Source: Thermodesulfobacterium commune DSM 2178 (GTDB taxonomy: Bacteria > Desulfobacterota > Thermodesulfobacteria > Thermodesulfobacteriales > Thermodesulfobacteriaceae). Taken from it: a DNA stretch of 32,000 nt. Positions 2,927 to 18,946 of this stretch are shown piece by piece (the stretch's first letter is position 1; every line of letters starts with the position of its first letter). The DNA lies in the NCBI RefSeq assembly GCF_000734015.1, contig NZ_CP008796.1, forward strand, positions 360,001 through 392,000. The letters run 5' to 3'. The translations under genes were made by a program, and so were the position numbers. Below the pieces are notes generated by a model. It saw nothing but the letters and a program-made list of their open reading frames with translations. It was not told where the DNA came from and made no database searches.

Positions 2927-3033
2927 AGTAAATGTAACATATACATAGGTAGTTATGTCTAAAATTTAAAAACAAGATAAGTAAAAAAGATTAGGTATAT
3001 AGTTTTTCAATGAAAATTTGACGGAGGAGGTCT

Positions 3034-3345
3034 ATGAAAATTCTTATTATTATCACCAGTAGCGATCCTGAAATTATATACCATGCTATGAGGTTAGCAA
3101 ATGTTGCTTCTCAAAAAGGAGAGGAAGTTTCGGTTTTTATGTTAGGAAAAGCTGTTTTATTTGAAAAGCTTTCTAACGAGCAGTTTAACATAATGGAACA
3201 AATAAATACTTTTCAAGGAGATTTTTATGCCTGAGGTGTATGTTTAAAGGCTCATGGGCTTGAGCCTTCTTCCACTTGTCCAGTAGCCTTTATGGTAGAT
3301 CTTTATGAGCTTGTTAAAGAGGCAGATAAAGTTTTAACTTTTTAA
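3034..3345 (+). CDS. DsrE-like small selenoprotein (~103 aa) with in-frame UGA (Sec) at 3232-3234. The ORF track shows only the first 66 aa.
   Basis: Strong RBS GGAGGAGG sits 5 nt before the ATG. The frame stays open 36 codons past the TGA, to TAA 3343-3345. The junction reads FYA-U-GVC-LKAHGL, a UxxC redox motif at the position of the conserved Cys in DsrE/DsrF-like proteins. The N-terminus MKILIIITS...RLANVA..G.EV.VFMLG.AV is typical of the DsrE fold. A hairpin follows the TGA by 13 nt. Confidence 0.75.
3247..3268 (+). promoter_or_regulatory. Candidate bacterial SECIS hairpin for the UGA at 3232
   Basis: Perfect 8-bp stem aaggctca (3247-3254) / tgagcctt (3261-3268) with a 6-nt G-rich loop tgggct. 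The loop lies about 23-29 nt from the U of UGA, comparable to the E. coli fdhF SECIS geometry. Confidence 0.6.
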
Positions 3346-3412: not shown

Positions 3413-5026
3413 ATGATAAAAACTTCAAAGGTCAAGATAGAAAAACTGTCTTCTGAGCGGTTTTCTTCAGTATATCAATTTGACCTTAAACCTCTTGAGT
3501 TGGAAAGTTTTTTAGACGAATATATAGTAGGACAAAGAGAGGCTAAGGCGATCATTGCTACCAAGATATGTACCCACTTTCAGAAAATTAAACATTATGT
3601 TTTAAAGAGAAATGAGGATTTTGATTTTGTGAAAAACAACCTTCTTATCATAGGACCTACTGGAGTTGGTAAAACCTATATGATAAAGTTAATAGCCAAG
3701 AAAATAGGAGTTCCTTTTGTAAAAGGGGATGCAACCAAGTTTAGCGAGACAGGTTATGTGGGAGGTGATATAGAAGATTTAATTAGAGAACTTTATTGGG
3801 AAGCAGAAGGAGATCTTGAGAAAGCCCATTATGGAATGATTTTTTTAGACGAGATAGACAAGATAGCCTCTAGCGGAGAAACTATAGGACCAGACGTTTC
3901 TCGTACAGGAGTACAAAGGGCTTTGTTAAAACCTTTAGAGGAAACAACGGTAGAGATAAAATTCCCACCTGAGGCAGGTTCTGGGTTTGATCGTAAAGAT
4001 ATTTTTGATAAAACTCGTAAAAGAAAGATAATTCTAAACACTAAGCATGTTCTTTTTGTAGCGAGTGGTGCTTTCCAGGGTTTAGAAGATATCATTAAAA
4101 AAAGGCTAAAAAAACAAAATATGGGTTTTCTTTCTGAAATAGAAGATAGATTAGAACAAAAATTAAACTATTTAAAATTTGTCTCACCAGAAGACCTTGT
4201 GGTTTATGGTTTTGAAAGAGAGTTTGTAGGGAGATTCCCTGTTATTGTTGTATTTGATCCTCTTTCTGAGGAAGATCTTTTTGAAATTCTTGCGAATCCT
4301 AATAGTCCTATGGTTTTAAACAAAAGAAAAGATTTTAACGTTTATGGAATAACCTTAGCTTTTTCTAATGGGGCTTTAAGAGAAATTGCCAAAGTTAGTG
4401 CTAAAGAAAATACCGGGGCTAGAGCCTTGGTGATGGTATTGGAGAGAGTTTTAACCCCATATGAAAGACTCTTACCTTCTAAAGGGTTTAAACATCTTGG
4501 GGTAACTGAAGAGATGGTAAAAGACCCTGAAGGGGTCCTTCAAGCTATGTTAAACTCTCCTAAAAGTGACCGTTGGAAAGAAATCTTTAGGGCGTGTCTT
4601 TTAGAGGAAGAAGAAAGGTTTAAACGTTATCTGAATTCAAAGGGTATTTTTAAATCCGAAAGTTCTTTCGAGTTAACGCCTAAAAGGGTTGAATTGCTTT
4701 TTGATTTTTACTTAAACGAGGCTATTGAACTGACCAAAGGGTGGGAAAAACTTTGTTATGTATGGCAACAAGTTAAAAATTATGAAAAATTTTTCGAAAA
4801 TAGATATAATTTAAAGATTTGCTTTTCAGATGATGCGATAGACTTCATCATGGAAAGAGCTATAAAAAAGGAAACCGGTGTTTTTAGTATTTGTGAAAAA
4901 CTTATGTCTCGTTTAAAAGATGAGCTATTTTATTTAAAGGATGTTTGGGAGATAAAAGAAATTACCATAACCTCAGTTGCTTTTAAAAATCCAGAAAGAC
5001 TTTATAAAGAAACCCTAAAAAATTAA
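3413..5026 (+). CDS. ClpX-family AAA+ unfoldase paralog lacking the N-terminal C4 zinc-finger domain, with a ~160-aa C-terminal extension
   Basis: Collinear with ClpX: Walker A GPTGVGKT, pore-1 loop GYVG, Walker B IFLDEIDK, MGF in place of the IGF loop, Arg-finger region EFVGRFP, sensor-2 TGARAL. There are no Cys pairs in the first 60 aa. The extra tail spans roughly 4535-5023. Confidence 0.85.
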   Translation: MIKTSKVKIEKLSSERFSSVYQFDLKPLELESFLDEYIVGQREAKAIIATKICTHFQKIKHYVLKRNEDFDFVKNNLLIIGPTGVGKTYMIKLIAKKIGVPFVKGDATKFSETGYVGGDIEDLIRELYWEAEGDLEKAHYGMIFLDEIDKIASSGETIGPDVSRTGVQRALLKPLEETTVEIKFPPEAGSGFDRKDIFDKTRKRKIILNTKHVLFVASGAFQGLEDIIKKRLKKQNMGFLSEIEDRLEQKLNYLKFVSPEDLVVYGFEREFVGRFPVIVVFDPLSEEDLFEILANPNSPMVLNKRKDFNVYGITLAFSNGALREIAKVSAKENTGARALVMVLERVLTPYERLLPSKGFKHLGVTEEMVKDPEGVLQAMLNSPKSDRWKEIFRACLLEEEERFKRYLNSKGIFKSESSFELTPKRVELLFDFYLNEAIELTKGWEKLCYVWQQVKNYEKFFENRYNLKICFSDDAIDFIMERAIKKETGVFSICEKLMSRLKDELFYLKDVWEIKEITITSVAFKNPERLYKETLKN

Positions 5027-5039
5027 AGGGTATGGTTAT

Positions 5040-5396
5040 ATGATTTACTTAGCCCTTTCGGAAGATTTGTTTAAGAAGTTAAAAGAGGCTTTAGAAAAAC
5101 ATAAAATTAGATATAAATTAATAGAAGACGGAGAGACCCTACTTAAATTAGCTAAAAAAGAAAAACCTAAGTTAATTATTTTGGAAAAAGATATCCCTTT
5201 GTTAGATGGATTTGCTACGACTTTACTTTTGAAGTCTAACCCAGAAACTCAAACCATACCTATAGTGGGGGTTTGTAAAGTTCCGTTAAAAGAAGAAGAA
5301 CATAGGGCTAAAGATTGTGGTTGTGATGATATTTTGGTTTATCCTTTTAAAGAAGAGGAATTTTTAAACAAAGTTTTAAAGTACATAAAAAAGTAG
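5040..5396 (+). CDS. Stand-alone receiver-like (CheY-fold) domain protein; atypical or pseudo-receiver
   Basis: 118 aa with receiver-domain layout. KLIILEKDIPLLDG aligns to the canonical DxxxxD-x-x-MP-x-x-DG segment with Glu at the phospho-acceptor position. IPIVGVC has Cys where the conserved Thr/Ser sits. DDILVYPF has Tyr where the conserved Lys sits. Confidence 0.7.
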   Translation: MIYLALSEDLFKKLKEALEKHKIRYKLIEDGETLLKLAKKEKPKLIILEKDIPLLDGFATTLLLKSNPETQTIPIVGVCKVPLKEEEHRAKDCGCDDILVYPFKEEEFLNKVLKYIKK

Positions 5397-5409
5397 AGGT
5401 AGAAAAGTA

Positions 5410-6594
5410 ATGATAGGAATTTCTAAACTTTACTGTGGAACGATAGAGGCTTCAGACCCGTTAAGGTATGGAAGGCACTCGAAAAACCTTCCATCCCATC
5501 TTCTTCAATTTTCAGCAGATAAAAAACCAGTGGTAGTGTGGAACGTAACCAAGGCTTGTAATCTTAGGTGTATTCACTGTTATGCTAAGGCAGACAACAA
5601 GCCCCATCCAGAAGAACTTACAACTCAAGAAGGCATGGCTTTGCTGGAAGATTTAGCTCAATTTGGAGTGCCTGTGGTTTTATTTTCTGGAGGAGAGCCT
5701 TTGGTAAGGTCAGATATTTTGGATTTGATAAGAAAGGCTGTAGAGTTAGGAATGAGGGCTGTGCTTTCTACCAACGGAGTTTTGATAGATGAACCTTTAG
5801 CCAAGGAACTTAAAAAAATAGGGCTTTCTTATGTAGGAATTAGCCTTGATGGGTGGAAGGAAGTACATGATAGGTTTAGAGGAGTAAAAGGGTGTTTTGA
5901 TAAAGTTATTTCTGCTATAGAAAACTGTAAGAAAGAAGGAATAAAAGTAGGTTTAAGATTTACAATTAATAAACTTAATGCCCAGGAAATTCCCAAGGTG
6001 TTTGATTTGGTTGAGGAACTTTCTATTCCAAGAATATGTTTTTATCATTTAGTATATGCCGGAAGAGGTAGCTCTTTGATTGATATGGATTTAGACCATG
6101 AGGAAACTCGATATTGGGTAGACTACATCATAGACCGCACCAAAGAATTACATGATAAGGGACATAAAGTAGAAGTGTTAACCGTAGATAATCATGCCGA
6201 TGGTCCTTATCTATATCTTAGGATGAAAAGAGAAGGAAATCCCAGGGCAGAGGAGGTCTATGAACTTCTTAAGATGAATGGAGGTAACAACAGTGGTGTG
6301 GGTATAGGATGTATTTCCTGGGACGGAGAAGTTCATGCAGACCAGTTTTGGAGGCACTATTCTTTTGGTAACGTAAGAAAAAGACCTTTTAGTCAGATCT
6401 GGACAGATCTTTCAGATCCGTTGATGGCTAAACTTAAAGAGAAAAAGAAATATGTTAAGGGAAGATGTGCTGCTTGCAAGTTTTTGGAAGTATGTGGTGG
6501 AAACTTTAGGGTGAGGGCAGAGGCCGTTACAGGAGATGTTTGGGCCCCTGACCCAGCTTGTTATTTGACTGACGAAGAGATAGGTATAGCTTAA
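5410..6594 (+). CDS. Radical SAM / SPASM-twitch enzyme of the NirJ/AhbC/AhbD (alternative heme or heme d1 biosynthesis) type
   Basis: CNLRCIHCY (CX3CX2C) plus the GGEPL SAM-binding motif. The C-terminal auxiliary-cluster motif CAACKFLEVC...C has roughly CX2CX5CX21C spacing. The N-terminal LYCG..DPLRYG...LPSHLLQFS leader resembles NirJ/Ahb-type enzymes as I recall them. The subfamily is not resolvable by eye. Confidence 0.8.
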   Translation: MIGISKLYCGTIEASDPLRYGRHSKNLPSHLLQFSADKKPVVVWNVTKACNLRCIHCYAKADNKPHPEELTTQEGMALLEDLAQFGVPVVLFSGGEPLVRSDILDLIRKAVELGMRAVLSTNGVLIDEPLAKELKKIGLSYVGISLDGWKEVHDRFRGVKGCFDKVISAIENCKKEGIKVGLRFTINKLNAQEIPKVFDLVEELSIPRICFYHLVYAGRGSSLIDMDLDHEETRYWVDYIIDRTKELHDKGHKVEVLTVDNHADGPYLYLRMKREGNPRAEEVYELLKMNGGNNSGVGIGCISWDGEVHADQFWRHYSFGNVRKRPFSQIWTDLSDPLMAKLKEKKKYVKGRCAACKFLEVCGGNFRVRAEAVTGDVWAPDPACYLTDEEIGIA

Positions 6595-17947: not shown

Positions 17948-18946
17948 ATGGATGTAAGAGTAGGAGGTATTTTATTAGGTCTCTTGTTGGTTTTGGGAGA
18001 GTATTTTGGTTCTCCTTGGGGTATTACTAACCAATCTTTTCTTAATTTATTTGTTCTCTGGTTAGGAGCTTTTTTTTCTGCCAATCTTTTTAAAGAGTGT
18101 GGCTTAAGAATACCGGCTAATCAAGAATGGACTAAAAGCCTGATTGCTGGTGTTTTAATGGGTATAGGAGCATTTTTAGCAGCAGGAGACAACGTTACCG
18201 CTTTTTTAATGCCCTTTATTAACCTTTCTGCAGGTTCTTTGGTGGTACTGGTTGGTTTATGGATAGGAGGGTTGATGGGTATAAAATATCAGCTAAAAGA
18301 GTTAGAAAAAAAACAGCAAGTTAAAGCAATACAAGTAAAATTTCCCAAGTTAAATCCTCTGTTGGCTTTGTTAAGCTTTGGGGTTTTAGTTTGGTTGTGC
18401 TTTAAGTCATGGGTCTTTGTTTTTTGGGCAGCCATAGGAATGGTTCTACAGAAAAGCAACTGGTGTATGGTGAATACGCTAAAAGAACCCTTCTTTTCAG
18501 AAAAAAACATAAATACCCAAAGTGTGGTTTTAACCTTAGGATTAGCGGTTTTAGGTATATGGGGACTCAAGTTTTACCAGGTATTAGAACCCTATACCTA
18601 TGTTTTACCAAATTTTGGAGTGATAGGTTTTATCGGTGGGATAATCTTTGGGTTAGGGATGTTGCTAGGAGGATCTTGTGGAGCAAGTCTCTTTGCGAAA
18701 TCAGGAGAGGGGGACCTTAAATCTTTTATTACTTTAGGAGTTTTACTAAGCTGTTATAAAGTTTTAAACTCAACCATTTCTCTTTCTTTCTTACAAGAAG
18801 GGCTAAAAAATCTAAACATTTATCTGCCAGATTATTTTGGTTATCCAGGGGCTCTTTTAATTTCATTGGTTGTGTTAGGTCTTTGGTTGACTTTGAGTTG
18901 GTGGAATGTTAAAACCAAGAAGTTGTTAAAGCGTTATTATCTTTGA
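17948..18946 (+). CDS. Polytopic membrane protein, YeeE/YedE-like (putative sulfur- or selenium-compound transporter family)
   Basis: 332 aa, about 8-10 hydrophobic segments and an internal two-fold repeat. NWCMVNTLKEP and GGSCGASLFAKSGEG resemble the RFCLTGGFR and AGGCATGTWYRAGEG motifs of E. coli YeeE as I recall them. The RBS GGGAGG precedes the ATG. Confidence 0.55.
   Translation: MDVRVGGILLGLLLVLGEYFGSPWGITNQSFLNLFVLWLGAFFSANLFKECGLRIPANQEWTKSLIAGVLMGIGAFLAAGDNVTAFLMPFINLSAGSLVVLVGLWIGGLMGIKYQLKELEKKQQVKAIQVKFPKLNPLLALLSFGVLVWLCFKSWVFVFWAAIGMVLQKSNWCMVNTLKEPFFSEKNINTQSVVLTLGLAVLGIWGLKFYQVLEPYTYVLPNFGVIGFIGGIIFGLGMLLGGSCGASLFAKSGEGDLKSFITLGVLLSCYKVLNSTISLSFLQEGLKNLNIYLPDYFGYPGALLISLVVLGLWLTLSWWNVKTKKLLKRYYL

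Follow-up and report, generated by a model that had tools for sequence, protein, structure and literature searches.

A probable DsrE-like selenoprotein of Thermodesulfobacterium commune recorded as a truncated 66-residue peptide

The window analysed here is a 32,000-nt stretch of the genome of Thermodesulfobacterium commune DSM 2178 (contig NZ_CP008796.1, positions 360,001 to 392,000), and the subject of this report is its gene HL41_01920, located on the plus strand at 3034-3345 (window coordinates throughout). Two other proteins encoded in the window, GyrB (AIH03680.1) and NusA (AIH03688.1), gave exact database matches to this strain. The start codon ATG 3034 has the Shine-Dalgarno-like sequence GGAGGAGG just upstream (3023-3030, +; read directly from the sequence), and no clear promoter or terminator was found in the flanks of the gene. 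In GenBank and RefSeq the entry is a 66-aa "hypothetical protein HL41_01920" (AIH03668.1 / WP_038060014.1), which covers 3034-3234 only and ends at the TGA codon at 3232-3234. Beyond this TGA, the same frame stays open for 36 codons, up to TAA at 3343-3345, and the translated read-through product reads ...GDFYA-U-GVCLKAHGLEPSSTCPVAFMVDLYELVKEADKVLTF, where U stands for selenocysteine (Sec). A first-pass annotation of the window, made from the sequence alone, had pointed out this extended frame and had predicted that standard gene callers would truncate the gene; the sequence and its translation bear out the former, and the two database entries the latter. The features of the read-through product, all on the plus strand, are: the in-frame UGA (3232-3234), corresponding to U67, the first residue of a U-G-V-C motif; the TGT codon of Cys70 (3241-3243), the resolving partner in this UxxC site; the TGT codon of Cys82 (3277-3279), a third conserved thiol within a C-P motif; and TAA (3343-3345) as the true stop. 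Translation, a match to the Pfam family DsrE and 80 collinear orthologous loci make it very probable that 3034-3345 is one gene, encoding a 103-residue selenoprotein of the DsrE/YchN fold with Sec at the UGA.

The read-through was examined by comparison of orthologous loci. One genome per GTDB species was scanned and 133 relatives were returned, of which 80 loci were kept; these, together with the window gene, constitute a set of 81 sequences from many Desulfobacterota families and other phyla. The first-pass annotation had put forward the alignment of homologues across the junction as a check, and in all 80 loci the tblastn alignment does span it (residues 1-103 in 76, 2-103 in two and 1-100 in two), with TGA at the column and 36 conserved codons behind it, except for an additional TAG in one locus (L005). 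The internal stop is TGA in 81/81 sequences and never TAA or TAG; the terminal stops are mixed (TGA 38, TAA 34, TAG 9), and exactly 36 codons lie between the two in 80/81. Mean pairwise identity at the three codon positions is 0.83/0.87/0.46 over the 60 codons upstream of the UGA and 0.87/0.90/0.56 over the 36 downstream of it. All orthologues end at the column after ...TF, and past the terminal stop the identity is 0.25 at every codon position. The conservation downstream of the UGA is of the coding type and shows that this segment is translated, with purifying selection acting on it.

The extra in-frame TAG mentioned above lies at codon 72 (L005:6214-6216), five codons past the Sec-UGA, in a Thermodesulfobacteriaceae metagenome-assembled genome (MAG; JBMSAU010000076.1), where the other sequences have Lys (AAG/AAA). 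An assembly error, decay to a pseudogene or some other cause may lie behind it; this locus is the orthologue nearest to the window gene in the type of its selenocysteine insertion sequence (SECIS). Another in-frame TAG, at codon 13 (L058:3079-3081; Glu in all others), was found in the orthologue of a Desulfobacterales MAG and is probably an error or marks a pseudogene.

At the protein level, the read-through product (with Cys for the stop) scores 46.2 bits with Pfam DsrE (PF02635; threshold 22.7) and covers the full profile (positions 1-116 of 116), compared with 24.9 bits and positions 1-48 for the 66-aa product, so the DsrE signature read from the sequence at first pass was correct. An AlphaFold2 model was made of P0001, a Cys-form orthologue 68% identical to the window protein, on an 82-sequence alignment (predicted local distance difference test, pLDDT, 95.3), and supersedes a run on a 5-sequence alignment (pLDDT 53.8). 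Its N-terminal part comprises strand 2-7, helix 12-27, strand 31-36 and helices 38-46 and 53-59, and its C-terminal part strand 63-67, helices 68-73 and 87-96, and strand 99-102. The top eight Foldseek matches of the model in PDB are all DsrE, YchN or DsrF proteins, with template modelling (TM) scores of 0.71-0.86; the best of them (TM 0.81-0.86) are 3pnx (Swol_2425 "DsrE"), 1jx7 (YchN), 3mc3 (Sulfolobus DsrE/DsrF-like) and 2hy5_A (DsrE of DsrEFH). When sequence profiles are compared, YchN comes out as the nearest protein of solved structure (E = 8e-8) and its C-K-T-C falls on the U/C-G-x-C columns, where BT1422 has C-Q-D-C; 3mc3 places a single Cys on the column of residue 67. A search of PDB with a shallow profile had placed the CxxC two residues out of register, and a deeper profile corrected this alignment. 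In the model, residue 67 lies at the end of a beta-strand and caps a helix, a predicted geometry that suits a reactive chalcogen in a CxxC-type site.

Were the TGA a true stop, as in GenBank and RefSeq, the product would be a 66-residue peptide and the 111 nt downstream an untranslated remnant or the decaying tail of a pseudogene. Such a peptide would still pass the Pfam DsrE threshold, just barely, and no Sec machinery was seen in the window; on the other hand, it would be without the entire CxxC site as well as the final helix and strand of the fold. The coding-type selection on the codons beyond the TGA, the frame and length kept in all sequences but one, and an internal stop that is invariably TGA all speak against this explanation, which we regard as highly improbable and which the comparative data already contradict. 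Nor is the downstream part a separate open reading frame (ORF): the first in-frame start codon after the TGA is that of Met87, and a separate downstream gene, for want of a start codon before it, was therefore excluded.

Another conceivable explanation is a TGT or TGC misread as TGA in sequencing or assembly. A close orthologue does carry TGT here, a difference of a single base; yet the same TGA is present in the complete genome of the type strain, in five independent metagenome assemblies of the same species (98.9% identity over 13 kb, with identical sequence downstream of the TGA) and in 80 other species-level genomes. Because the five independent assemblies share the TGA, an error was excluded, and its chance is practically negligible. 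The sole difference within the gene between DSM 2178 and these assemblies is in the codon before the UGA (3229-3231), GCC (Ala) versus GTC (Val). In the 81 sequences, this codon and codon -4 have raised synonymous conservation (0.79 and 0.75, respectively), hinting at a context effect on recoding.

An alternative genetic code, with TGA read as Trp or Gly, was also considered and rejected. TGA terminates 4/26 long ORFs of the window, and the code is therefore standard. Other TGA-interrupted ORFs were sought across the window and only antisense shadow ORFs were found.

The next question was which residue relatives carry in place of the UGA. When 5.8 billion proteins were searched, 115 of 120 relatives among the matches listed end at the position of the UGA (being 66-67 aa long or N-terminally extended) and five are full-length, including P0001 with Cys (TGT), P0002 with "W" and P0005 with TGG. 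The "W" of P0002 (L098) is a TGA translated by a gene caller with a TGA=Trp code. A genuine TGG (Trp) occupies the Sec column of P0005 (L099:699-701), accompanied by several unusual substitutions.

Searching 1.84 billion cluster representatives with a profile brought up 459 matches, many of which stop at profile position 66 and many of which are full-length (106-107 residues, 31-50% identity). Residue counts by column rest on 82 aligned full-length relatives. Column 67 holds Cys in 73, Trp in four, Ser in four and Gly in one, and column 70 Cys in 79; column 74 is Arg in 63 and His in 16; column 82 is Cys in 65, followed by Pro in 55. The consensus is ...I-x-A-C-G-T-C-L-K-x-R..., which puts the UGA at the position of the first Cys in a conserved CGxC. 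This agrees with the motif A-C-G-x-C...(R/H) that had been given for Cys-containing relatives at first pass, when the TGA was placed on a conserved redox Cys.

Directly downstream of the UGA lies a putative bacterial SECIS (region 3235-3276, +), of which only the apical hairpin (3247-3268, +) is clear in the window. Its arms, AAGGCTCA (3247-3254) and TGAGCCTT (3261-3268), are perfectly complementary and form an 8-bp stem closed by the loop UGGGCU (TGGGCT in the DNA, 3255-3260). The first-pass annotation had described this hairpin correctly, apart from its distance to the TGA, given as thirteen nt: the gap from TGA to stem is 12 nt (20 nt to the loop). Perfect 8-bp hairpins with loops of 4-8 nt have seven starts in the whole window (35% G+C), and the chance of one starting in a given 12-nt interval is about 0.003. 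The published model of bacterial SECIS elements (PMC13188914) asks for an apical loop of 3-9 nt, an upper stem of 4-16 bp, a G in the first two loop positions, a UGA-to-loop distance of 16-37 nt and a minimum free energy (MFE) of at most -7.5 kcal/mol. The window hairpin agrees with it in every respect (6-nt loop, 8-bp stem, 20 nt spacing, -11.6 kcal/mol alone); its loop has G at positions 2-4, of which that at position 2 satisfies the G rule.

The comparative data carry the case for this RNA element, and they also support the SECIS-like character proposed for the hairpin at first pass. Along the gene, pairs of sequences with the same amino acid share the codon at a background of ~0.45. At codons +5 to +11 (K-S-H-G-L-E-G), which form the hairpin, the synonymous-codon identity is 0.82-1.00, save for Leu +9 (0.57), and the means are 0.67 in the hairpin versus 0.43-0.46 elsewhere (Mann-Whitney p = 0.0009). 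The majority structure of the orthologues is an extended, interrupted stem beginning right after the UGA, in which explicit pair counting found 85.6% of cells paired, against 36-48% in slid controls (partners moved by 1-3 columns); its covariation score is 0.140, versus 0.04-0.08 in these controls. Compensatory changes are seen at columns 9-44 (GC 23, CG 10, UG 5) and 19-36 (UA 64, GC 9). The apical stem is made of different sequences at the same offset in three lineages, and the loop always contains G25-G26. In most Desulfobacterota the stem is AUCCC(A)C/G(A)GGGAU, in T. commune and a Thermodesulfobacteriaceae MAG it is GGCUCA/UGAGCC, 1 nt out of register, and in another thermophile group GGCC/GGCC with a bulged A. 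As judged by these sequence comparisons, both the structure of the gene and selection on protein as well as RNA can be taken as demonstrated.

His74-Gly75 (window 3253-3258) is fixed in the Sec forms, and the Gly codon GGN is the source of the GG in the loop. The 82 full-length relatives are mostly of the Cys type; no more than 15 of the 82 have Gly at residue 75, and Arg predominates at residue 74, as given above. It thus seems that the SECIS dictates the amino acids at residues 74-75.

Several observations weigh against the reading of this locus as a SECIS-directed Sec gene. The MFE computed for the 59 nt that follow the UGA does not fall below that of shuffled controls (z = -0.29), and stability alone is therefore not the evidence. 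The stem of the window is 1 nt off the majority register and the covariation counts come mainly from other lineages. The loop GG doubles as the invariant Gly75 codon, so that its conservation cannot be separated from that of the protein. With RNAalifold, no consensus stem emerged from the 81 aligned SECIS regions, which is likely due to the frequent A-A mismatch at columns 23-32 and to the register differences. Rfam gave no match at the locus at gathering or permissive thresholds, and may hold no suitable bacterial SECIS model. Moreover, two of four distant Cys-type genes fold moderately at the hairpin offset (energies of the four from -0.9 to -7.8 kcal/mol, compared with a Sec-type median of -6.4), and the majority SECIS hairpin sequence AAAUCCCACGGUCUGGAGGGAUC is still present in the Cys-form orthologue P0001, at L086:1068-1130 and L087:338-400, where TGT stands at the UGA column; its retention suggests a recent replacement of Sec by Cys. 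Finally, selA, selB, selC (tRNA-Sec) and selD were sought in the window and ~10 kb on either side and none was found.

The T. commune apical hairpin (3245-3271) is the third most stable of the 81, with -12.3 kcal/mol versus a median of -6.4 at 37 C, and -4.4 kcal/mol remain at 70 C. Growth at high temperature may have selected for this stability.

The only tRNA gene of the window is a tRNA-Gly, and the support for Sec machinery in T. commune comes from the literature, at the level of the genus. Selenoprotein genes have been counted in T. hveragerdense (five), T. thermophilum (four), T. geofontis (three) and Thermodesulfobacterium sp. OPB45 (three) (Peng et al. 2016, Table S2, PMC5029168), and the GyrB proteins of the first two fall into the same 90% cluster as T. 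commune GyrB. Complete selA/B/C/D sets were described for Thermodesulfobacteria isolates possessing selC* tRNA(Cys) (Mukai et al., PMC5389517). The machinery is presumably encoded in the T. commune genome as well.

The selC* tRNAs bring in a further explanation, namely that the UGA is recoded but the residue is not always Sec. Cys would be inserted by a selC* tRNA(Cys) with a UCA anticodon (possibly with a SelB paralogue), or Trp by near-cognate read-through, resulting in a Cys, Trp or mixed product. Such tRNAs with GCA or UCA anticodons were reported in Thermodesulfobacteria isolates, an E. coli assay showed insertion of Cys at UGA by the UCA form, and the same study allows for a low probability of occasional UGA decoding as Cys (PMC5389517). 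In addition, Cys works at position 67 in relatives, and one homologue (L099) has the genuine TGG described above at this column. However, the same selC* genomes are reported to contain the complete Sec machinery, and the selB*/cysS* arrangement tied to UCA anticodons was described for Deltaproteobacteria and not for Thermodesulfobacteria (PMC5389517). Furthermore, with Cys only one base away, a strict TGA together with a SECIS in 81/81 sequences is what selection for Sec predicts, and a functional Trp at a catalytic Cys/Sec position is unlikely. We therefore give this explanation a slim chance. In Thermodesulfobacteria with selC* tRNA(Cys), the UGA of this family might be read as Sec or Cys depending on the selenium supply.

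If Sec is inserted, as we infer, the mechanism would by analogy follow the E. coli paradigm. With the ribosome at UGA 3232-3234, the mRNA just downstream would fold into the bacterial SECIS hairpin (apex 3247-3268), SelB-GTP carrying Sec-tRNA(Sec) would bind the G-containing apical loop and deliver selenocysteine, and 36 more codons would then be translated, up to TAA 3343. The fold and the motif point to a role in redox reactions or as a chalcogen carrier. U67 and C70 could act as a selenenylsulfide/selenol-thiol redox couple or as a carrier of bound chalcogen (e.g. persulfide), with Cys82 as a possible third ligand.

DsrE-like proteins were named as a recognised prokaryotic selenoprotein family at first pass, and the literature agrees. 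DsrE-like UXXC proteins were reported as a selenoprotein family from Sargasso Sea data (Zhang et al. 2005 Genome Biol 6:R37, PMC1088965), a member was described in Desulfovibrio vulgaris (Zhang et al. 2006, PMC1794560), and the family is included in current reviews (PMC9312934, PMC13188914), with WP_014524487.1 as a representative. The T. commune protein shares with it PF02635, the UxxC motif (U67-G-V-C70), the UGA with a downstream bacterial SECIS and the centre of distribution in sulfate-reducing Desulfobacterota, and presumably belongs to the same subfamily as this representative; the 80 loci include some from Desulfovibrionales (L040, L063 and L068). It differs in that it is not recorded as a selenoprotein but annotated as a 66-aa hypothetical, and in its SECIS stem, which is of a different sequence and shifted by 1 nt.

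Among solved structures, E. coli YchN (PDB 1JX7) is the best relative (TM 0.82), having CKTC aligned on U/C-G-x-C and sharing the C-terminal ...DKVLTF. Unlike the T. commune protein, YchN has Cys instead of Sec; the identity is ~20%, and as a DsrE-superfamily protein without an assigned function it gives no mechanism. The sulfur-relay subunits DsrE of DsrEFH and TusD of TusBCD (PDB 2HY5, 2D1P) share the fold (TM 0.81 to 2hy5_A), and their catalytic Cys78 is at a strand-to-helix position that we take to be comparable to that of residue 67. In contrast to the gene described here, these proteins form heterohexamers encoded by adjacent genes and have a single active Cys, not a CxxC; none of the partner genes (DsrF/DsrH or TusC/TusB) flank the T. 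commune gene.

No NCBIfam model matches the family, the sole similarity being to YedF (TIGR03527, "sulfurtransferase-like selenium metabolism protein"; E = 3e-4 to 0.08), which is below the cut-off. YedF proteins have been connected with SelD and selenium metabolism, and their C-terminal DsrE-like domain has a CGXC motif (PMC5322559) in common with the proteins described here. The scores of 13-21 bits (12.8 for the T. commune protein) fall far short of the cut-off of 110, the match is confined to the region of the C-terminal domain, and the 103-residue protein differs in being free-standing, Sec-using and devoid of the N-terminal SirA/TusA-like domain. That the 103-residue family is a free-standing, Sec-using counterpart of the YedF CGxC domain, handling a chalcogen or metalloid (Se, S, As) and not engaged in general redox, is a speculative and rather doubtful idea, hinted at by the ArsR-type regulator and methyltransferase genes near some family members (see below). 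SaoD (CD2369 family, SAO system) is also DsrE-related and has an invariant CxxC and one further invariant Cys, which can be compared with U67, C70 and C82. It was reported never to be a selenoprotein and to be encoded in a nine-gene SAO locus (bioRxiv 10.1101/2022.07.06.499078); the T. commune gene has no SAO-type neighbourhood, and YedF is the only NCBIfam model that matches its family even weakly.

The T. commune gene is a further, mis-annotated member of a selenoprotein family known since 2005, and does not open a new mechanism. The annotation of HL41_01920 / WP_038060014.1 should be corrected from 66 to 103 residues with U67, which enlarges a small selenoproteome by one member (3-5 are listed for related species). 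Around 95% of the family entries among the matches listed are cut at the UGA, a few others being read through with Trp under another genetic code, and since there is no NCBIfam model for the family, automated pipelines will keep truncating its members. The family is also a clear example of a SECIS within a coding sequence that constrains both synonymous sites and amino acids (His74-Gly75).

As regards its genomic context, the T. commune gene sits between priA and an AAA+ ATPase gene, and a conserved gene neighbourhood, sought over the 80 loci, was not found. With these flanks and no conserved neighbours, the product is therefore not a relay subunit of the DsrEFH or TusBCD type. Directly downstream (3413-6594, +) are encoded a 537-residue AAA+ ATPase (AAA_2 / ClpB_D2-small), a stand-alone response-regulator receiver and a radical SAM/SPASM protein, and this gene order is kept in the related strains L081-L085. 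At 17948-18946 (+), 15 kb from the selenoprotein gene, the window encodes a 332-residue YeeE/YedE "sulphur transport" membrane protein (PF04143, 95.7 bits), of a family proposed to move sulfur or selenium compounds. In nine of the 80 Sec-type loci (e.g. L033), a gene for an ArsR-like helix-turn-helix regulator was recognised by eye just upstream, and SAM-dependent methyltransferase genes adjoin two of the four Cys-type relatives examined (L094:39-593 and L096:539-1111). These neighbours give a weak hint of a role involving metalloids or reactive sulfur.

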